DNA of 64,000 nt from Peptococcaceae bacterium (GTDB lineage Bacteria > Bacillota > Peptococcia > Peptococcales > BICA1-8), in the NCBI GenBank assembly GCA_049366715.1, contig JBMNCQ010000004.1:100470-164469 (forward strand). The letters run 5' to 3'. The notes under the pieces are model-generated. The model was not told the DNA's origin. It saw only the letters and a list, made by a program, of their open reading frames with translations, and did no database searches. Shown piece by piece: positions 976 through 60,992 of this stretch (position 1 is its first letter; each line of letters begins with the position of its first letter). A program made the translations under genes and the position numbers.

Positions 976-1845
976 TTAAAAACCTTTGTATAAGTCCATA
1001 TCAAATACATCCATCCTCTGCATGTTTTCTTGCAAACTTTTAGATATTCTTTCTTTATCTTTCTCTAAGATACTCATCAGCAAAATGTGACACAATTCCA
1101 AAGTCACTACATGGGAATTAAAAAATGTAAAATCATTTTCGATATAAACAAGAAAAATGATATCACTTTTTATACTGATCGAAGAAGTATTCGTATCTGT
1201 AATGGTAAGCACTTTAGCACCCTTTTCCTTCGCTAAAAGGATAACATTATATGTAGGCTTGGAATACCTGGGGAAACTAAAGGTGATCAGCAAATCATTT
1301 TCCGTTATATCCATTATTTTTTCAAAATTAGCTAACCCGCCCTGGGTAATTTGTATTACCTTAAATCCCATTCTGCGCAAATGAAGCGCGAGAAAATCTA
1401 TGATGGTCCCACTAAGCCTCATGCCCATTAAATAGATCGCCCGGGCTTTATAGATAGCTTCTACCCCTTCGGCGATCTTCCCCATATCAAGGTTTAATAA
1501 AAAATCCTCCAGGTTTTTTAAATCGGTTTTACCAACCTGCGATAATTGATTTAACTCACCGGTAAGACTAGCGGAATTTTGCGGAATTCTATTGTGGGGC
1601 AGATCAATGTTTTTTAAACTTTCTCTTATACTATTCCTGAATTCTGCATATCCCTTAAACCCAATGGCTTGAGCAAAGCGAATGGCTGTAGCATCACTTA
1701 CTCCTACCTGCTCCCCTAGTTCTATGGCAGACATAAAAGCAACCTTCCGATAGTTATCCAGTACATATTTTCCCAGAGTTTTCTGGCTGCCGGTTAATTG
1801 ATCAAAATTTTCTTTTATAAATTGCAGCACATTTTTTTGCTCCAT
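976..1845 (-). CDS. RpiR-family transcriptional regulator (HTH_6 + SIS domain)
   Basis: HTH segment SAIELGEQVGVSDATAIRFAQAIGFKGYAEFR followed by a SIS-like half. Start moved to MEQKNV (ATG 1845), 11 nt after AAGGAGG. The track's 321-aa ORF carries a spurious N-terminal extension. Confidence 0.85.
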   Translation of the reverse strand: MEQKNVLQFIKENFDQLTGSQKTLGKYVLDNYRKVAFMSAIELGEQVGVSDATAIRFAQAIGFKGYAEFRNSIRESLKNIDLPHNRIPQNSASLTGELNQLSQVGKTDLKNLEDFLLNLDMGKIAEGVEAIYKARAIYLMGMRLSGTIIDFLALHLRRMGFKVIQITQGGLANFEKIMDITENDLLITFSFPRYSKPTYNVILLAKEKGAKVLTITDTNTSSISIKSDIIFLVYIENDFTFFNSHVVTLELCHILLMSILEKDKERISKSLQENMQRMDVFDMDLYKGF

Positions 1846-2016
1846 CCCATATTCGCCCTCCTTATAGGTATGGTTGTCTCCCATTATATCACAACCTCTC
1901 TTGAGCCTTAAACCTCTCCCGCAGCCCGAAATTGCTGCCAAAAAATTGCTCCTTGGCCTTATTTCAAGCCAGCGACTAAATGTAGTTCTCCGGCTTATCC
2001 GTTTGTTTGTGTCAGT

Positions 2017-2041
2017 GTGTCAGGGGACGGTTCTTTGACAC
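2017..2041 (+). repeat. Hairpin repeat copy A (class 1): GTGTCA-GGGGACGGTTCT-t-TGACAC
   Basis: 6-bp inverted arms around the invariant 12-nt core. Preceded by a tandem TGTGTCAG duplication (2007-2022). Confidence 0.85.
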
Positions 2042-2374
2042 ATTTGCCGGTGAATCTGGGGATTTAAATTTTACAGTGCGGTTGGGATTGATTGAGAAAT
2101 ATCACATTAATTAGTAATGGGGCTGTTAGTGCAACAGCCCCTTGTAGGTAGATATTATCAGTGAACTATTAATATGGTGAGGGGTAGGGAATGAGAAAAA
2201 ATACATTGGATTTAAATACTATTTAAAAGCTAAAGCGTCGCTCTGGTTTGAAGATTGCTTTTGATACTGTTAGTCATATGATTTTGGTATCATTCCCCAC
2301 TTCGCACATAGCCACAGGTAGTGATGTTTTATGTTTATTTATAAAGCGTTGTACCTGTTTTTCTCCGCTAAAAT

Positions 2375-4535: not shown

Positions 4536-4696
4536 ACGCTCTCTCCTTCCTTTCCGAGATAAATGATCCTTTTGTAGATATAGACGCGCGCTTTACCCAA
4601 AAGTTACTCTGTTATCATAAATAACTCCAATACAGCATTCTGAAATAAGTTTTCCGCTAGGGATTCTGCAATTCTATTTCGTTCATTTTGAAAAGT

Positions 4697-4721
4697 GTGT
4701 CACAGAACCGTCCCTTGACAC
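4697..4721 (-). repeat. Hairpin repeat copy B (class 1, inverted): GTGTCA-cAGAACCGTCCCt-TGACAC
   Basis: Reverse complement reads GTGTCA-AGGGACGGTTCT-g-TGACAC, with one G>A change in the core. Inverted partner of copy A across the sigma operon. Confidence 0.85.
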
Positions 4722-4802
4722 AATGTAGACACTCTATCTTCAAAGTGAAGAACAAATTGAGATATGCAGCCGGACCAACTTTTAACTCCACACTTTTAGA
4801 CC

Positions 4803-10080: not shown

Positions 10081-10103
10081 CAATGTGTCATGTGTCAGGG
10101 GAT

Positions 10104-10128
10104 GTGTCAGGGGACGGTTCTTTGACAC
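10104..10128 (+). repeat. Hairpin repeat copy C (class 1), identical to copy A
   Basis: GTGTCAGGGGACGGTTCTTTGACAC. Preceded by tandem partial duplications ATGTGTCA / TGTGTCAGGGG / ATGTGTCAGGGG (10084-10113). Confidence 0.85.
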
Positions 10129-10338
10129 ACCCTTCTTTGCACACTTTCCGATTTAAATCCAATAAAGCAGCAATCTTCCGGATTGACAACTGGATTTGGC
10201 TTTTAAGATCACCAGTATCTCTTATAAATAATGTTTATTGTCTTTACTTTTCCATTTACTCATTGATAATCTCTTTGCTTTTAAGTACTCTTCTAAAATA
10301 CCCGGCCTCCTCCGAAGATAATCGTGTCCCGTCGGGTT

Positions 10339-10363
10339 GTGTCACAGAACCGTCCCCTGACAC
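10339..10363 (-). repeat. Hairpin repeat copy D (class 1, inverted)
   Basis: Reverse complement is GTGTCA-GGGGACGGTTCT-g-TGACAC. It forms an inverted doublet with copy C, 210 bp apart. Confidence 0.85.
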
Positions 10364-10586
10364 ACCTCGACACGATGATAGTGCCGGACCAGTAATCATA
10401 ACTGAAGGTCTTGCTGTCTATCGTGGTATTTCCCAGCTATCCTGATTGTTAATGAAATAATTAAACACGTAACATAAAATTTAACAGGTAACAAAAGTTT
10501 TTGAATTTTTGTAGACCCCGTTGCTTTCCCCTCAAAAAAGCCGCTCTCTCTGAGAGCGGCTAAGTGAAAATGACCGGAAGCGGGCT

Positions 10587-11669: not shown

Positions 11670-12971
11670 TTACTTATTTTGGCCGGCCTCATAAAGGGGA
11701 ACAGGCAAATTGTATTTTTCCAAGCGTTTATCAATGGACATTTTGTGCCCTAACATACCTTCCATGGCACAAGAAATTGCACAATAAGGCGCAACATATT
11801 TCAATCCTTCCGGTTTCACTTTCTGATAGGTCAAATTTTTCAAGAACATGCCGACCCATAAACCGCCGGTATACCGGGAGGCTTTTCTAGTGGGGAGGAT
11901 ATGATTTGTTCCAATACCTTTATCTCCCAGAGCAACGGTCGAATACTGCCCGACAAATAAGGAGCCGTAGTTGGTTAAATTCTCCAAAAGCCATTCGTCA
12001 TCTTTAGTTTGAATCTCCACATGCTCACTGGCGTAATCATCCGCGACCTCTGCAGCCTCTTCCAAACTACCCACGACAATTACCTCACCGTTATTGTCCC
12101 AGCAAATCCGGGCGATGTCTCCCGTTGCTAATTCCGCAATTTGCTTATCCACCTCAGCAATTACTTTTAAGCCAAAATCCTCCGACAATGTGACTAAAAC
12201 CACCTCAGATTCCGTACCATGTTCAGCCTGGGCAATCAAGTCCGCTGCAACGATCACGGGATCAGCGGTTTCATCGGCAATTACCAGGGCTTCCGACGGG
12301 CCGGCAAACAAGTCGATCCCGACTTCACCGAACAACTGCCGTTTTGCTTCCGCTACATATTTATTCCCCGGTCCTACAATGATATCTACAGGTTTAATTG
12401 TTTCCGTTCCTAAGGCCAGAGCAACCACAGCCTGCACCCCGCCTAGGCAATATACTTCCCCGGCACCTGCCGAAGCCATAGCATAGATGGTCCGATTGGG
12501 AAGCTCACCCCGAAAAGGCGGGGTTACGGCGACAACCCTTTTGACACCTGCTACAACGGCAGGAGTAATACTCATATTGGCCGAAGCAACAATGGGATAA
12601 CTCCCCCCCGGTACGTATGAACCGGAAGAGGCAACGGGAACGGTTTTCTGTCCTAAAGTAACTCCCGGAAATAACTCCGTTTCAAAATCAGTAAACATCT
12701 CATATTGTTTCCGGGCAAAACGCCTTACGGAATCCTGGGCAAAACTAATGGTTTGTTTTTCGATCCCCGATACGGTCTTTGCTACTTTGGCCAGCTGTTC
12801 ATCGGAAATTCGAAAAGAAGCAGGTGCCCAGTTATCAAACTTCTGAGAATACTCCCGTACAGCTTCATCACCTCTGACATGAATATCTGCAATGATTTTT
12901 GCCACAGCTTCCTGAACTTCTGCCGCAGATTTTTTTTCCCGGAAATTTTTTTCTTTTAAATATTTTTTCAT
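11670..12971 (-). CDS. Histidinol dehydrogenase-family 4-electron alcohol dehydrogenase (HisD/HpsN-like paralog)
   Basis: HisD motifs QAEHG, SEHVEI and GIGTNHILPT are present. It is not in a his operon and sits in a TRAP-linked catabolic cluster. Confidence 0.8.
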   Translation of the reverse strand: MKKYLKEKNFREKKSAAEVQEAVAKIIADIHVRGDEAVREYSQKFDNWAPASFRISDEQLAKVAKTVSGIEKQTISFAQDSVRRFARKQYEMFTDFETELFPGVTLGQKTVPVASSGSYVPGGSYPIVASANMSITPAVVAGVKRVVAVTPPFRGELPNRTIYAMASAGAGEVYCLGGVQAVVALALGTETIKPVDIIVGPGNKYVAEAKRQLFGEVGIDLFAGPSEALVIADETADPVIVAADLIAQAEHGTESEVVLVTLSEDFGLKVIAEVDKQIAELATGDIARICWDNNGEVIVVGSLEEAAEVADDYASEHVEIQTKDDEWLLENLTNYGSLFVGQYSTVALGDKGIGTNHILPTRKASRYTGGLWVGMFLKNLTYQKVKPEGLKYVAPYCAISCAMEGMLGHKMSIDKRLEKYNLPVPLYEAGQNK

Positions 12972-13155: not shown

Positions 13156-13884
13156 TTATACTGAATTTTCACTCCGTCCCAAATTAACGACAAATCCATA
13201 ACTATCCGCTCGATAAACACTGTGCTCATATTCCACCGTATTCCCGGCCACATCGAAATTAATCCGTTCAATAAATAAAACGGGCACCGTATCAGGCATA
13301 TCCAAGAGCATACACTCTTCTGCCGTCGGCATCCTGGCGGTAATGATCTGCTTGGCATTCCAAAGCTTAATCCCCATATTTTCCAGTAAATTATAGGTGC
13401 CCACATTATTTAAATCAAATTTCGTTAATTTCCCCCCGATTTCCAAAGAATAATAGGAATTTTCTATCGAAATCGGATTATCATCGGCATAGCGGACCCG
13501 TTTGATGTTATAAAATTCTTCCTCTCCCAGAGTCTCAGCGACCTCTTGGGGCGTAGATGCTATAGTACTGCTCAAAAGCTTAATATAAGGCTTCATACCC
13601 ATATTTTCAATAATTTGCCGATAGGTACTAAAACTACCCAGCCACTCTTCAACAGGCTTAAAGGAGATAAAGGTACCCTTGCCGTGCAATTTCTTTAAAA
13701 TTCCCTGGTCGACCAGCTCCTTGACGGCCTGTCGTACAGTGGCTCTGCTTACGGAAAATCTCTCCATTAATTCAAATTCCCCGGGGATTTTTTCATCATA
13801 GATTCCTTTGAGAATTTCTTCTTCTAAAGTCATTTTTATTTGTACATGCAACGGTAAATATTTATTAAATTCCAATGATCGCAC
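13156..13884 (-). CDS. GntR-family regulator, HutC subfamily (wHTH + UTRA)
   Basis: N-terminal ELMERFSVSRATVRQAVKELVDQGILKKLHGKGTFI followed by a UTRA-like effector domain. Confidence 0.9.
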   Translation of the reverse strand: MRSLEFNKYLPLHVQIKMTLEEEILKGIYDEKIPGEFELMERFSVSRATVRQAVKELVDQGILKKLHGKGTFISFKPVEEWLGSFSTYRQIIENMGMKPYIKLLSSTIASTPQEVAETLGEEEFYNIKRVRYADDNPISIENSYYSLEIGGKLTKFDLNNVGTYNLLENMGIKLWNAKQIITARMPTAEECMLLDMPDTVPVLFIERINFDVAGNTVEYEHSVYRADSYGFVVNLGRSENSV

Positions 13885-23700: not shown

Positions 23701-23991
23701 TTAAGCTTCCTTCCTGCTTACAGGAAGGATAAATTCTACATCACCATGAGGACGTGGAATGACATGGACGGAGAGCAGTTCACCAACACGCTGGGCTGCT
23801 GCTGCTCCGGCGTCCGTTGCTGCTTTTACAGCACCTACATCACCTCTGACCATAACGGTTACCAGCCCGCCGCCGACTAATTCCCGGCCCAGGAGATAAA
23901 CATTGGCGGCTTTAACCATGGCGTCTGCCGCTTCAATTGCTCCTACCAGACCTTTTGTTTCAATTAACCCTAAAGCTTCTGTTTTACTCAT
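23701..23991 (-). CDS. BMC-H shell protein (PduA/EutM-like)
   Basis: [31 protein letters not shown]... is a canonical Pfam00936-type sequence. Confidence 0.92.
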
Positions 23992-37004: not shown

Positions 37005-37295
37005 TTACCAATCGATAAAGTATTTCGCAATAATCTTCAGTACGTCGGGATGAGGCCGGGCGATGACATTAGAGCTATAGACCTGGCCTACCTTGCCGGC
37101 TTCCTCAATACCGGCCTCTACCGCAGTTCTTACCGCTGCCAGGTCACCCCGGACCACAACGGAAACCAAACCGGAGGCCACATTTTCATAGCCGATCAAC
37201 TCCACATCGGCGGCCTTGCACATGGCATCGGCAGCTTCCAGTACCGAAACCAGGCTGTATGTCTCGATAAAGCCCAGCGCATCATTTCTGCTCAA
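37005..37295 (-). CDS. BMC-H shell protein
   Basis: SRNDALGFIETYSLVSVLEAADAMCKAADV. Start set to the second TTG (37295), 6 nt after GGAAGGGGA. Confidence 0.88.
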   Translation of the reverse strand: MSRNDALGFIETYSLVSVLEAADAMCKAADVELIGYENVASGLVSVVVRGDLAAVRTAVEAGIEEAGKVGQVYSSNVIARPHPDVLKIIAKYFIDW

Positions 37296-37324: not shown

Positions 37325-37624
37325 TTAATTCGCATCAATGTCATGTTTGGCAACAATCTTACCCACCCGGCTGACAGGACGCGGCATGACATGGGTGGCT
37401 GTCATCTCCCCAATGGCAGCGGCCCCTTTAACCCCTTGCTCTACAGCCGATCTGACCGCCGCAACATCCCCTTTTACCATAACCGTAACAAGACCTGAGC
37501 CCATATTTTCAAAAGAGACAAGAACAACATCAGCAGTTTTACACATAATGTCTACGGCTTGAATAGCCGGAACCATACCTTTTGTTTCAATAAGGCCTAA
37601 TGCTTCTTGGCCGGTATATTCCAT
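37325..37624 (-). CDS. BMC-H shell protein (first gene of the shell/enzyme block)
   Basis: [33 protein letters not shown]. Confidence 0.9.
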   Translation of the reverse strand: MEYTGQEALGLIETKGMVPAIQAVDIMCKTADVVLVSFENMGSGLVTVMVKGDVAAVRSAVEQGVKGAAAIGEMTATHVMPRPVSRVGKIVAKHDIDAN

Positions 37625-51042: not shown

Positions 51043-51112
51043 AATTAATCCTCCTCTCAATCAACCTATTTTTTTTGACATTTAAAGTATAGTCCAAACT
51101 TAAAACAACAGA

Positions 51113-51151
51113 TATCGATTTGTTGAGTTCTTATTTGTATATCTTGCTATG
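51113..51151 (+). repeat. 39-bp direct repeat copy 1 (TATCGATTTGTTGAGTTCTTATTTGTATATCTTGCTATG)
   Basis: 36 of 39 positions identical to 55539-55577. Lies 71-109 bp upstream of the RraA-like start. Confidence 0.85.
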
Positions 51152-51416
51152 TATCGTCAACCGACCAAGGGGAATTCTGAATGCCAATATTTCCCTGCAT
51201 AACTGCACCTTAATTAGTCTCATTACTCATGAGCTAAAAAAGCGGTCCGGAATTTTATCCGGGCCGCCATAGGTTACGGAAATCATTGCTGCTGTTTCAT
51301 TATGGAATTCTCCACCAGCACTATTTAAAGCCAAAATCCGGCAGAGTTGTCTGACGTTTAAAAAGAATCGGGTGAATATGCTTTGCATCTTCCGAGTAGA
51401 AATCCCGGGCAGAATT

Positions 51417-54130: not shown

Positions 54131-55138
54131 CTATTTCGACAGGGCCCTGATCTCGTCCAGCTTATCTCCATATTCAGCTTTGTATTTCTCATACACAGGC
54201 TGAACAGCTTCGGTAAAGCTGGTCTTGTCCGGATAATTAACAGTCATGCCGGCCGCCTCCATAGCAGCAACGTCGGCATTAACTTTTCTTGCTTCCTCCC
54301 GCTGGTAAATTTTCGCTTTATCGGCAGCATCCAGCAAAATCCCCTGATCTTCTTCAGACAGAGAATTAAATAGCTCGGCATTAATCAGCAGCTCGGCAGG
54401 AGCATAAAGGTGCTCGGTCATAGCAAGATATTTATTAACTTCGAAAATCTTACCGTCGCGTACTGCCATCAGCGGGTTTTCCTGTCCGTCGATGGTACCC
54501 TGGGATAAAGCTGTATATACTTCCCCCCAGGACATAGGTGTTGCATTTGCCCCCATAGCGTTGAAAGCTGCGATATGAATCTCACTTTCCATAGTACGAA
54601 TCTTCATATTTTCCAAATCTGCCACCGTATTGATCGGTTTATTGGAGGTCATATTTCTGAACCCGTTTTCAAAATATGCCAAACCCACAATACCGATATC
54701 ATTCAATTCATCCAAAAGGGATTTGCCGATCTCACCGTCAAGAACAGCCGCCACATGATCGAAGTCCCTGAACATATACGGGAATTCAAACACACTAAAG
54801 TTTTTCGAGAAATTAGTCAGAGGTGCGTTAGTAGTAATACACATATCTATGGTTCCTATTCCGGTTCCCTCAACCAGGTCACGTTCTTGCCCAAGAGTAC
54901 CGGCAGGGTAAATTTCAACTTGTATTCTTGAATCCGTTGCTTCTTCCACTAATTCTTTGAAACGAACGGCACCTAGATGATAGGGATGAGCTTCAGTCTG
55001 GCCATGCCCAAGTTTAATAACAACGGCCTCGCTCTCAGTCTTATCTGCAGCTGGAGTAGGTTCAGATTTCGAACTGCAGCCGGTAAAAATTGTTAATATG
55101 AACACCAAAATTAATATTATTGCACTCAATCTCTTCAT
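54131..55138 (-). CDS. dctP: TRAP transporter solute-binding lipoprotein
   Basis: Lipobox IFTGCSSKS and a DctP-family body. Confidence 0.9.
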   Translation of the reverse strand: MKRLSAIILILVFILTIFTGCSSKSEPTPAADKTESEAVVIKLGHGQTEAHPYHLGAVRFKELVEEATDSRIQVEIYPAGTLGQERDLVEGTGIGTIDMCITTNAPLTNFSKNFSVFEFPYMFRDFDHVAAVLDGEIGKSLLDELNDIGIVGLAYFENGFRNMTSNKPINTVADLENMKIRTMESEIHIAAFNAMGANATPMSWGEVYTALSQGTIDGQENPLMAVRDGKIFEVNKYLAMTEHLYAPAELLINAELFNSLSEEDQGILLDAADKAKIYQREEARKVNADVAAMEAAGMTVNYPDKTSFTEAVQPVYEKYKAEYGDKLDEIRALSK

Positions 55139-55538
55139 TAAAATTTCCTCCCCTTTTAATTTGCCTTACTTTTAGCCTCATGCATCATTGTCTAGAAAAA
55201 CTTGTAATGCAAAATGACTTTTAAGTCTTTCTTATAGAAGAATACGCGCCACCACCTCCTAAATACTATAATATTGTCGTAACAACAGGCGCTCAGCACC
55301 TGTTTCTTATATCCACTAAAAGCACACTCAGCATATTTTTCAAAACTAAATCATCATAACCGTTATCTCAAGAAAACACGTTAAATCGGTAATGTGAAAA
55401 TCTAATTTTTCTCTACATACTTTATAGTTAAAATCAGAACTTTCGATAAAATTTGCTCAATTTTATGGAACAAATCCTCTAAAAGGAAGTCTGAGATGAG
55501 TCCGTATTCTAAGTATAAGGCAAATTATATGGATCAAC

Positions 55539-55577
55539 TATCGATTTGTTGAGATATTATTTGTATATCTTGCTATG
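55539..55577 (+). repeat. 39-bp direct repeat copy 2
   Basis: TATCGATTTGTTGAGATATTATTTGTATATCTTGCTATG, 401-439 bp upstream of the second dctP start. Confidence 0.85.
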
Positions 55578-55653
55578 GATATTATGGATATTACGGATAT
55601 GGATATCGCGGAAGCATAGGCGAAGCATGGGGAAGCATGGGGAAGCATGGGGG

Positions 55654-55682
55654 GGAAGCATGGGGACGGTTCTTTTGCTTCC
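55654..55682 (+). repeat. Hairpin repeat copy E (class 2): GGAAGCA-tGGGGACGGTTCTtt-TGCTTCC
   Basis: 7-bp arms around the invariant core. Preceded by about four tandem GAAGCATGGGG units (55617-55665). Confidence 0.85.
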
Positions 55683-55856
55683 TCTCCCCCAAAACCGTCC
55701 TGATCCTCGAAGGCCACCGGAGGATCTCAGCCGCTAAAATTCCGTTAGAAATCTTTTTTAAGCCTATCTTAAACTGTTTAATTATTATAACACTCTAATT
55801 ATTCAGAGGCATTTAGCAGCACTTTCCTCCCTGCCGTCAAGCCCTTGATACAAATT

Positions 55857-57214: not shown

Positions 57215-57455
57215 ATTTTATCTTCCTCCCATAGATATAATAGAAAAATTTTTTCGGCCGACTAATAATATTTAGTCTGCACCAAGTACAATTTTACCAT
57301 TAACCCTCATCAACATGAAACAATAAAATATCAAAAACAAGTAAAAAAATATGCCAAATTTTTCTATAGACATCCACGTTCTGGTTTAGAAAAAGCTCCT
57401 AAAAAAAAACAAGGCCGCACTACGCAGCCTGCTTATTTATAATATTTACCGTTTA

Positions 57456-57475
57456 GGAAGCAGAAGAACCGTCCC
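57456..57475 (-). repeat. Hairpin repeat copy F (class 2, inverted; left arm decayed)
   Basis: GGAAGCA-gaAGAACCGTCCCC. The reverse complement carries the intact core plus the TGCTTCC arm, while the opposite arm is degenerate. Confidence 0.75.
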
Positions 57476-57497
57476 CGCGCATCTGCCGTCCTTTAAT

Positions 57498-58379: not shown

Positions 58380-58500
58380 AGCTAATTATACATATTCTTT
58401 ATTTATCTAAACTTAAGTTTTATACCATCACAAATAACCCAAATAAACAAATCAACCGAACACTCCAAATTTATCCAGCCATCATAGTTATGATAAAGGA

Positions 58501-58530
58501 TACTCCGGATGATACCATTCATCCGGAGTA
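58501..58530. terminator. Perfect 11-bp stem-loop TACTCCGGATG-N8-CATCCGGAGTA between convergent genes
   Basis: Perfect inverted repeat. No strong U-tract on either strand. Confidence 0.45.
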
Positions 58531-58539
58531 TCTCTTAAA

Positions 58540-58566
58540 GAAGCAAGGGGACGGTTCTCCTGCTTC
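58540..58566 (+). repeat. Hairpin repeat copy G (class 2): GAAGCA-aGGGGACGGTTCTcc-TGCTTC
   Basis: 6-7 bp arms around the invariant core. Confidence 0.85.
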
Positions 58567-58580
58567 CATTCCCTTTCTCG

Positions 58581-59360
58581 CTAGGCCTTGAAAATCAGGT
58601 TTGGGGAAACCCCTAATATTCTTGCCGCCTGTCTTTGCGTTATTCCTTCTATTTTTTTAACCTTTTGTAAAATTTTATCCCTCTCGATCTTAGGAAGACT
58701 CTTTATTTGTGCGATTTCAACTCCAGTAATCAGCTTTAAGATTTCTTCTCTTACCTTCTCATCGGATAGCTGTACTTTTTCATTAAATCCCACATCTAAA
58801 CATCGATCATTATTTTCTCGTTCATTAAATTCCCTGAAACGCAACATAGCTGTATTCTCAACATCCGCAAACATCTGCAGGACAAAGCCGGTATTTAATA
58901 ATCCCACCGGTACAATGTTCTGTCCATAATATCCTGGACAACTGCTCCATTGCCAGTTCTCAAGTTTTTTTACCATTCCTGCCTGCCGGGGGTTTTGATG
59001 AATATATCTAAGTACGCTTAATAAATATTCGTTTGATTCTACCTTTTCGCTTCTAAATCTATCCTGAAAAAGATGACCTGTTGTTTTATATTTCTGATTA
59101 TAATACCATACAAAGCTCACCCCGATCCGCTTCATGGTAACAGAAAGGTCTTCATCACCCTCTTTTAAAAGAAGATGCAGATGATTGCTCATTAAACACC
59201 ATCCATATATTTCCATTTCAGCCGCCAATTTATATTTCTTTAAAATTTCCAGAAATCTTAATTTGTCTTCATCATCATGAAAAATCTCCTGTTTATTCGC
59301 TCCTCTGATCATTATGTGATATATCCCGCTTGCACTTTTCTCTCTAGCCACACGGGGCAT
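58581..59360 (-). CDS. REP-associated tyrosine transposase-like protein (Y1/HUH, IS200-like fold) with C-terminal HTH
   Basis: HUH motif CLMSNHLHLLL and Tyr helix LRYIHQNPRQAGMV. C-terminal HTH GITQRQAARILGVSPNLI. Start set to the ATG at 59360, after GAGGTGA. Confidence 0.8.
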   Translation of the reverse strand: MPRVAREKSASGIYHIMIRGANKQEIFHDDEDKLRFLEILKKYKLAAEMEIYGWCLMSNHLHLLLKEGDEDLSVTMKRIGVSFVWYYNQKYKTTGHLFQDRFRSEKVESNEYLLSVLRYIHQNPRQAGMVKKLENWQWSSCPGYYGQNIVPVGLLNTGFVLQMFADVENTAMLRFREFNERENNDRCLDVGFNEKVQLSDEKVREEILKLITGVEIAQIKSLPKIERDKILQKVKKIEGITQRQAARILGVSPNLIFKA

Positions 59361-59410
59361 CTTAATCACCTCAAATTTATTTTTAATCTATTATAACATT
59401 CCCCATTTTT

Positions 59411-59440
59411 GGAAGCAAAAGAACCGTCCCCGTGCTGTTC
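59411..59440 (-). repeat. Hairpin repeat copy H (class 2, inverted)
   Basis: GGAAGCA-aaAGAACCGTCCCCg-TGCTGTTC. The second arm carries a 1-nt insertion and a mismatch. Confidence 0.8.
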
Positions 59441-60743: not shown

Positions 60744-60764
60744 GGAAGCAGGAGAACCGTCCCC
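60744..60764 (-). repeat. Hairpin repeat copy I (class 2, inverted; one arm decayed)
   Basis: GGAAGCA-ggAGAACCGTCCCC followed by a tandem CCCATGTTTTTCT x2 (60761-60790). Confidence 0.75.
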
Positions 60765-60992
60765 ATGTTTTTCTCCCATGTTTTTCTTGTCAAAAAGTCA
60801 TAAAAAATCCTGTGCATCATGGGCATCGTCATTTGTGCATTAATGTAATGCTACATGCTCTGTATCCATTAATTTACAGGTAACCATAAGCTACCAGACC
60901 GTTAGCTTAAAAATATTGCGGCCCTCCACCCTACCCGGGAGGCCATTGAGAGTATCCAAATAAACATTCATACTATTCATATAATTATTAAC

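Follow-up and report, generated by a model that had tools for sequence, protein, structure and literature searches.

The largest and most insertion sequence (IS)-like group of REP-associated tyrosine transposases (RAYTs; REP, repetitive extragenic palindrome) is Group 1, with members in 21 classes, Clostridia among them, and with flanking 16-mers of only modest abundance (Bertels et al. 2017, PMC5581495). Group 1 corresponds to TnpA_Y1 subclass 2.1, long proteins with the class-2 motif Y---NP and a C-terminal helix-turn-helix (HTH) domain of the Bac_DnaA_C, HTH_23 or HTH_28 type; according to the same survey no REP-like sequences or secondary structures adjoin subclass 2.1 genes (Quentin et al. 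2018, PMC6006769). The transposases called TIRYTs lie between terminal inverted repeats that often share the motif GGGGWSAS, and these repeats sometimes form moderately abundant families, dimers or clusters (Di Nocera et al. 2013, PMC3733652). Folded single-stranded REPs are the substrate of the E. coli enzyme TnpA_REP, which binds, cuts and rejoins them (PMC3333891, PMC3479197, PMC8266576). The present analysis concerns a transposase gene and a family of hairpins in a 64-kb stretch of contig JBMNCQ010000004.1 from a Peptococcaceae bacterium, referred to below as the window. The gene and its hairpins probably constitute a REPtron/TIRtron-type unit, that is, a single-tyrosine HUH transposase of RAYT Group 1 (TnpA_Y1 subclass 2.1, "TIRYT") together with its cognate hairpin.

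The gene lies on the minus strand and encodes a protein of 259 residues. The Y1 hallmarks that an earlier note on this DNA, made from the letters alone, had pointed out are all present. The HUH motif, H60-L-H62, is part of SNHLHLLL (residues 58-65), the catalytic Tyr119 is part of RYIHQNP (residues 118-124), and a WxWSS motif occupies residues 136-140. H60, H62, Y119 and WxWSS are invariant in 18 of 18 aligned relatives. A profile search of the kind the note had suggested matched residues 13-123 to Pfam Y1_Tnp (PF01797) with E=1.6e-14, and the NCBIfam model NF047646, REP_Tyr_transpos, was passed marginally, with 80.5 bits against a cut-off of 80. The C-terminal HTH, also claimed in the note, appears as an HTH-like domain spanning approximately residues 200-259, with helices predicted at residues 200-258 in the AlphaFold model and a weak match to HTH_23 at residues 230-256 (E=0.01). 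HTH_23 matches were found in 12 of the 18 relatives (best E=5e-4) and HTH_28 matches in two of the 18, all below the Pfam gathering score.

A search of the PDB with a profile of the transposase family gave a single match, E. coli TnpA_REP (4ER8, E=4e-7), and none to an IS200/IS605 TnpA. HUH/Y1 proteins are marked by a ferredoxin-like fold, and the structure predicted by AF2 (mean pLDDT 79) has 4ER8 as its top Foldseek match, followed by the TnpA proteins of IS608 and ISDra2; the matches include the entries 2A6O and 2VJU. An identical protein is present in a Peptococcaceae metagenome-assembled genome, on one 330-kb contig, where it is already named "REP-associated tyrosine transposase". The start codon is preceded by a ribosome binding site, GAGGTG, at 59367-59372, and the surrounding region, GTGGTGATnAAGATG, is conserved in relatives. 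A two-hexamer promoter scan upstream of the gene called no promoter, the -35 candidate TTGCTT matching at three of six positions.

The hairpins of the window are built on a 12-mer core, GGGGACGGTTCT, of which there are eight exact copies and one copy with a single mismatch in 64 kb. When up to two mismatches are allowed, 14 core matches are observed, compared with at most eight in any of 100 shuffles of the window. All nine hairpin copies are intergenic, with no consistent orientation relative to the flanking genes. Two of them, hairpins G and H, bracket the transposase gene and are mutually inverted; the remaining seven are the further copies that the earlier note had described as scattered nearby. 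The bracketing in opposite orientations was thus read correctly, with small corrections to the distances (12 nt rather than 15 beyond the stop, 50 nt rather than 51 before the start). The note had also called the gene single-copy, and within the 64-kb window there is indeed one. Five copies at 55.6-60.8 kb have GAAGCA/TGCTTC arms and four at 2-10.4 kb have GTGTCA/TGACAC arms. These are the two stem types that had been distinguished as class 1 and class 2 hairpins; they are variants of the stem around a single invariant core.

Hairpin G folds with -6.7 kcal/mol (z=-2.3 relative to shuffled sequence). Both it and the GTGTCA copies are more stable than shuffles when folded as single-stranded DNA, with z values of -2.3 to -2.7. 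In hairpin H the 3' arm, TGCTTCC, is intact and the 5' arm is degenerate (ACAGCA against TGCTTC, 4 bp). Rfam gave no match in the window at gathering thresholds, hence the hairpin does not belong to the curated RNA families. The two-mismatch core matches at 897, 12636, 19770, 30438 and 38161 have no flanking arms and were therefore set aside as chance.

The same pairing of gene and hairpin recurs across Bacillota. A scan of one genome per GTDB species yielded at least 511 confirmed relatives, and the best 80 loci, with 54-73% identity, were kept. They include Clostridia (Peptococcaceae, Desulfotomaculum, Desulfosporosinus, Dehalobacterium, Alkaliphilus, Anaerovirgula, Geosporobacter, Syntrophomonas and others) and Bacilli (Neobacillus, Cytobacillus, Oceanobacillus, Virgibacillus, Paenisporosarcina and others), and the mean column identity of the protein in an alignment across both classes is 75%. 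The core, with no more than one mismatch, was found in 79 of these 80 loci. Of the 23 clostridial loci, 22 have a "+" core no more than 150 nt upstream of the start, typically at 54-71 nt, and 18 also have a "-" core no more than 100 nt downstream of the stop, typically at 6-27 nt. Of the 47 loci from Bacilli, 37 have a core no more than 100 nt downstream, and the upstream copy is usually 200-450 nt away; in these 200-450 nt (L041, L058, L068 and other Bacilli loci) no conserved open reading frame (ORF), leader or sequence was found beyond the ribosome binding region. The mean hairpin density near the gene is 2.0 per 10 kb in Clostridia and 5.3 per 10 kb in Bacilli. Most loci have one gene and many hairpins, with up to 25 of them in 20 kb around one gene.

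Outside these genomes, the hairpin pattern (17 specified bases) had no exact match in 2.9 million IMG/VR viral contigs. No homolog of the protein was found in IMG/VR, and none above 35% identity in the PLSDB plasmids. Distant homologs, too, have inverted repeats on both sides. In Acetoanaerobium noterae (L082) a paralog with 35% identity is flanked by the same core, AGGGACGGTTCT, with AATCA/TGATT arms; the core copies of this locus, at 486-542, 1386-1410 and 1874-1910, are both tandem and inverted. In Sporomusa termitida (L081) a homolog with 31% identity is flanked by inverted repeats containing GGGGTCAGGCC (517-550 and 1469-1502), and this repeat, GGGGTCAG, is a full match to the TIRYT motif GGGGWSAS.

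The structure of the repeat was derived from 558-562 instances at the 80 loci and in the window. It is a hairpin of about 29 nt in which a stem of 6-7 bp encloses the near-invariant core [G/A]GGGACGGTTCT, giving the consensus GGAAGCA-N-[G/A]GGGACGGTTCT-YN-TGCTTCC. Eleven of the 12 core positions carry 1.7-2.0 bits each and the first position (G/A) carries 1.05; the arms carry less. The arm positions are paired in 76-89% of cases with many compensatory changes, one stem pair being G-C in 269 instances, A-T in 122, C-G in 35 and T-A in 17. Among 146 distinct hairpins 82% of cells are paired, compared with 68% after shuffling, and two-sided changes occur in 139 cells where 43 are expected, a number that was reached by none of 500 shuffles. 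When the partner columns were slid by 1-3 positions, pairing was 39-54%. Each lineage tends to have arm sequences of its own (GAAACA, GAGCCA, TAAACG, TAATCA and the window's GTGTCA). The stem covariation thus indicates that the element is a folded single strand, in which the arms may change if pairing is kept and the core may not.

In REPs of RAYT Groups 2 and 3 a conserved GTAG tetranucleotide precedes the palindrome. No GTAG is present 5' of the stem in the position-frequency table; the conservation lies between the arms. In some minimum-energy folds an inner stem, GGGGA/TCTYN, forms as well. The core is without variation, so that no covariation signal is possible for this inner stem, and none was seen for its extension, the pairing of core position 0 with position 13. 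In Bacillus sp. EB600 (L014; for example 11782-11830 and 13692-13740) the core GGGGAC pairs with a downstream GTCCCC (GGGGACGGTTCTTCCGTCCCC) inside the outer arms, and the arm sequences vary from copy to copy.

RAYT genes are characterised by few copies per genome, none of them near-identical to another. Three genomes carry the whole hairpin-gene-hairpin unit of about 880 bp in two to four near-identical copies. The copies are 98% identical over 879 bp in Geosporobacter ferrireducens, 97% identical over 880 bp in Anaerovirgula multivorans and 97-99% identical in Anaerobacterium chartisolvens, and in each case the identity stops at the outer feet of both hairpins. The two bracketing hairpins are directed inwards, the 3' arm of each being the one nearer the gene. 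The earlier note would have taken kinship with multi-copy IS200/IS605 transposases, ending in palindromes unrelated to this hairpin, as speaking against a REP-like system. Multi-copy units do occur in these relatives, but the copies end in the same hairpin, so they support the link between gene and hairpin and do not refute it.

Hairpins also occur as doublets without a gene. Neighbours within 120 nt of each other are convergent ("+" then "-") in 107 cases and divergent in two. Such doublets contain 38% of all instances, are spaced mostly by 29-46 nt and have no gene remnant between them. Their convergent polarity is that of the two ends of the gene unit, and they look like gene-less units of the REPIN type. 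Units with an internal deletion occur in Paenisporosarcina (L010, 16740-17160) and Anaerovirgula (L025, 19375-19800), where only residues 137-259 are left between two hairpins. These residues are the non-catalytic C-terminal part; the Paenisporosarcina fragment is an intact ORF of 128 residues with a TTG start, and the Anaerovirgula fragment is decayed.

In the window, a doublet-like arrangement occurs only as the wider GTGTCA-stem pair (see the table), whose polarity is that of the ends of a gene unit on the minus strand. No intact gene lies between the two hairpins, and the pair is probably an internally deleted unit. A peptide that ends just before the downstream hairpin, SIRKIAALLDLNRKV, was considered as the remnant of a second transposase and rejected, its similarity to the HTH helix RQAARILG being not significant (hhalign E=0.35). 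An ORF of 120 residues at 10083-10445(+) has no Pfam match and spans both hairpins, and is therefore probably spurious.

A further feature is an exact tandem duplication of 7-18 nt, termed stutter here, which lies directly 5' of 61 of 558 hairpins (about 11%) in more than 40 genomes; four of the 61 are in the window. The same test gave three of 558 on the 3' side and six of 558 at a control position. The first base of the duplicated unit is at the 5' foot of the hairpin (positions -7 to -9), and its last base falls within the G-run of the core, in most cases at the third G. It consists of the 5' arm and the first 1-5 core bases and is always on the outer side of the hairpin. Since the 5' arm faces outward at the ends of both units and doublets, the stutter always falls at the junction of element and flank. 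Stutters are also seen at about 6665 in L061, at 9923 in L079 and at 2185 in L051; the first of these, in Neobacillus sp. D3-1R, has a 10-nt unit, ATGCTGAGGG, repeated at least nine times.

Departures from consensus affect 45% of 5' arms and 21% of 3' arms, roughly a twofold excess that is in line with stutter at the outer side. A different origin of the 5' arm, as a target site paired to the 3' arm, was rejected as a general cause because within a dense genome nearly all copies have one and the same arm (for example 21 of 24 in L052), and targets of such specificity are impossible by chance at that density.

From shared features, the locus is probably a member of a known, barely characterised class; it is neither a GTAG-REP RAYT nor an IS200/IS605 element. 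The REP/RAYT reading of the earlier note is supported for the RAYT-type gene and for the REPtron-like layout, which is conserved in relatives; the kind of RAYT has to be changed to Group 1/TIRYT. Subclass 2.1 is the assignment that best fits, judged from shared features rather than from a tree with the published sequences. Computation shows the class of the protein, the layout, the conservation, the covarying stems, the polarity of the doublets, the duplication of units and the stutter.

Analogy with TnpA_REP of E. coli and TnpA of IS608 suggests a possible mechanism. The hairpin would form on single-stranded DNA and the protein would read its invariant core, with Tyr119 and the metal site of His60/His62 cutting and rejoining the strand. 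By such reactions gene-less singlets and convergent doublets, and occasionally the whole unit, may be spread into intergenic DNA. The stutter suggests that breaks are made preferentially at two points, the hairpin's outer 5' foot and the core G-run, and its duplications might arise by a cleave-extend-cleave-rejoin cycle, as proposed for the amplification of BIMEs. A role in binding the duplex core is possible for the C-terminal HTH, and the gene might in this way be autoregulated through its likely promoter, which adjoins hairpin H. In this scheme the binding and cutting of DNA, the choice of strand and the function given to the HTH are inferred.

Several points weigh against this interpretation. 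First, binding and cleavage are extrapolated from proteins that are only about 20% identical. Second, the conserved sequence is inside the hairpin and not 5' of it as is the GTAG of REPs, and the analogy may not hold in detail; the invariance of the core would also fit recognition of duplex DNA by the HTH. Third, three of the five GAAGCA-type copies in the window (H, 57465 and 60753), with poor 5' arms, fold no better than shuffles. Fourth, the junctions of the stutter are not strictly fixed, ranging over core positions 0-5 with a mode of 2, and polymerase slippage at a stalled hairpin is therefore an alternative cause of stutter. Finally, all the related loci were selected for carrying the gene, and the controls for the hairpin are viral contigs and chance expectation.

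Among other explanations the likeliest is that the unit belongs to the IS200 group of insertion sequences as an ordinary, autonomous element, a selfish single gene whose decayed ends, not mobilised in trans, are the scattered hairpins. It accommodates the near-identical copies of the 880-bp unit in three genomes and the hairpin-flanked gene fragments in L010 and L025, and Group 1 RAYTs are the most IS-like of the RAYT groups (Bertels et al., PMC5581495), but the many hairpins around one gene at most loci and the compact convergent doublets with no trace of a gene fit it poorly. The ends of the unit are inverted copies of one hairpin instead of distinct left and right ends on the same strand. 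The protein, with its added domain, is nearer by sequence to TnpA_REP than to IS608 TnpA, and no close homolog was found on plasmids (PLSDB) or viral contigs (IMG/VR). An ordinary IS is thus an unlikely explanation.

Even less likely, and improbable by a wide measure, is a domesticated protein that serves as a DNA-binding regulator or as a factor structuring the chromosome, the core being a duplex site for the HTH and the hairpins being immobile operators, terminators or RNA elements. Domestication would have to be reconciled with HUH histidines and a catalytic tyrosine that are invariant in all aligned relatives, with stem covariation that argues for a folded single strand, and with recent unit duplications and one-sided stutter, signs that DNA is still being broken and joined at the hairpins. 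What it can draw on is a core that is invariant across the whole phylum, which is unusual for REPs, the presence of the HTH domain, the position of hairpin H next to an extended -10 element, and the strong conservation of the protein across Bacilli and Clostridia. The exclusively intergenic position of the window copies is also on its side, but these same copies lack a consistent orientation to the flanking genes. Coincidence of the flanking repeats, for which only their short length speaks, is already refuted by eight exact 12-mers in 64 kb that no shuffle approached, by an arrangement that recurs in dozens of independent genomes and by the lack of any exact match to the hairpin pattern in the viral contigs.

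Beyond the reading of the locus as a Group 1 RAYT with its cognate hairpin, a wider proposal can be made, which is tentative and at present more doubtful than the unit itself. The gene and hairpins could belong to an undescribed phylum-wide REP/REPIN-like system of Bacillota, in which one hairpin with an invariant core and lineage-specific covarying stems co-evolved with an HTH-bearing Group 1 RAYT (TIRYT). The stutter would then mark the breaks made by the enzyme at the outer foot and at core GGG^G, implying nicking within the hairpin. Replication-initiator HUH proteins nick within a hairpin at origins; IS608 TnpA and E. coli TnpA_REP cut beside the hairpin.

Table. Positions of the transposase gene, its candidate promoter element and the hairpins in the 64-kb window
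Feature	Position	Strand	Details
Y1/HUH transposase CDS, RAYT Group 1/TIRYT type, 259 aa	58581..59360	-	ATG at 59360, stop TAG 58581-58583
Extended -10-like element TGTTATAAT	59390..59398	-	between hairpin H and ATG, ~30 nt upstream; direct reading of sequence
Downstream hairpin G, inverted relative to H	58540..58568	+	core 58547-58558; stem GAAGCA/TGCTTC; 12 nt past stop
Upstream hairpin H	59410..59439	-	core GGGGACGGTTCT 59420-59431; ends 50 nt before ATG
Solo hairpin	55610..55683	+	core 55662-55673; stem GAAGCA/TGCTTC; preceded by tandem partial GAAGCATGGG copies (5' stutter, 55610-55661)
Solo hairpin	57455..57483	-	core 57465-57476; 5' arm degenerate
Solo hairpin	60744..60787	-	core 60753-60764; 5' arm non-complementary; 13-nt stutter AGAAAAACATGGG x2 (60765-60787)
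Stem-variant copy, GTGTCA/TGACAC	2008..2042	+	core 2023-2034; short stutter TGTGTCAG x2 (2008-2022)
Stem-variant copy	4696..4722	-	core AGGGACGGTTCT at 4704-4715
GTGTCA-stem hairpin pair	10090..10364	-	10103-10129 (+) and 10338-10364 (-), ~200 nt apart; stutter 10090-10109

The genes around the transposase gene are ordinary chromosomal genes, encoding a TRAP solute-binding protein (DctP), an SDF symporter, an HxlR regulator, a PNPOx-like protein, a beta-eliminating lyase and an OPT transporter. No tnpB-like gene is among these neighbours, in agreement with the earlier note. Just outside hairpin G, between the convergent PNPOx-like and transposase genes, a perfect stem-loop of 14 bp at 58499-58532 (GATACTCCGGATGA...TCATCCGGAGTATC) is probably a bidirectional terminator outside the repeat family. 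An inverted repeat of 24 nt at 880-933 (88% complementary, 6-nt loop) lies immediately beyond the 3' terminus of the gene at 976-1941(-); it resembles a terminator and accounts for one of the chance two-mismatch core matches.

Two other repeats were seen in the window. A direct repeat of 75 nt (77% identity) occurs at 51080-51154 and 55506-55580, in two intergenic regions, each of them preceding a gene on the minus strand, and could be regulatory DNA that the two have in common; the gene behind the second copy, 54131-55138, encodes a DctP-type TRAP solute-binding protein. A segment of 87 nt is present three times, at 23894-23980, 37198-37284 and 37521-37607, with 63-72% identity and overlapping listed ORFs. 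One possible reading is that these segments come from paralogous genes.

RAYT Group 1, or subclass 2.1, is the largest and least understood RAYT class, and to our knowledge no member of it has been studied biochemically. A candidate substrate for the class is now defined, a 29-nt hairpin with an invariant core. In addition there are natural compensatory variants of the stem, a polarity rule for doublets, near-identical units that mark the ends, and a footprint that suggests sites of breakage. Oligonucleotides and a single purified protein would thus be enough to test the class directly. Gram-positive bacteria would, by these findings, be added to the range of REP/REPIN-type elements. Around the gene the hairpins exceed one per kb in some Bacillaceae and must therefore affect intergenic annotation, spurious small ORFs and assembly.

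Several aspects seem to be new in the openly searchable literature: the hairpin nature of the repeat with its covarying arms, the single core common to Bacilli and Clostridia, the REP-like densities in Bacillaceae, the strict doublet polarity, the one-sided stutter, and the duplication of the whole unit in three genomes. Literature searches for the core sequence, for RAYTs or REPINs in Bacillota and for later work on TIRYTs returned nothing relevant; subscription-only papers were outside their scope and earlier descriptions are possible.

Of the described systems, the TIRYTs (subclass 2.1, Group 1) resemble this locus most closely. They have in common with it a long RAYT-like Y1 protein with Y---NP and a C-terminal HTH, encoded between inverted repeats with a GGGG motif. 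Their repeats, too, can form moderately abundant families as dimers or clusters, and the class is present in many phyla, including Clostridia. The start of the window core, GGGGACGG, agrees with GGGGWSAS at seven of eight positions, with G for A at position 7. The locus differs in that the repeat is a hairpin with covarying arms, that one 12-nt core serves both Bacilli and Clostridia, and in the REP-like density in Bacillaceae and the one-sided stutter. No example from Bacillota was found in PMC3733652, PMC6006769 or PMC5581495.

The E. coli REPtron, consisting of TnpA_REP (RAYT Group 2, subclass 2.2) and the REP/BIME sequences, likewise has a Y1/HUH gene between inverted copies of a dispersed palindrome. 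Its transposase structure, 4ER8, is the nearest solved one, and the doublets described here resemble BIMEs and REPINs. The published cleave-extend-cleave-rejoin model for REPs predicts tandem additions like the stutter (PMC3333891, PMC3479197, PMC8266576). In contrast to the REPtron, the hairpins here have no GTAG head, and the conserved sequence is between the arms and not 5' of the palindrome. The protein is about 95 residues longer, carries the HTH domain and has about 20% identity to TnpA_REP. REP families are species-specific, whereas the core described here is phylum-wide.

The IS200/IS605 elements, represented by the TnpA proteins of IS608 and ISDra2, share the fold, the catalytic motifs, the hairpin ends and, in some genomes, a duplicated unit of about 0.9 kb. 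They have distinct left and right hairpins on the same strand, a TnpA of about 130-155 residues and often a tnpB gene, none of which applies here. The REPINs (Bertels and Rainey 2011, PMC3116915) are also composed of two inverted repeats, in a closely spaced doublet of fixed polarity that mirrors the repeats around the transposase gene; together the two repeats make up a larger hairpin. REPINs belong to Group 2 and Group 3 RAYTs of Proteobacteria, whereas the doublets described here accompany a Group 1-like protein of Bacillota and singlets are as common as doublets.

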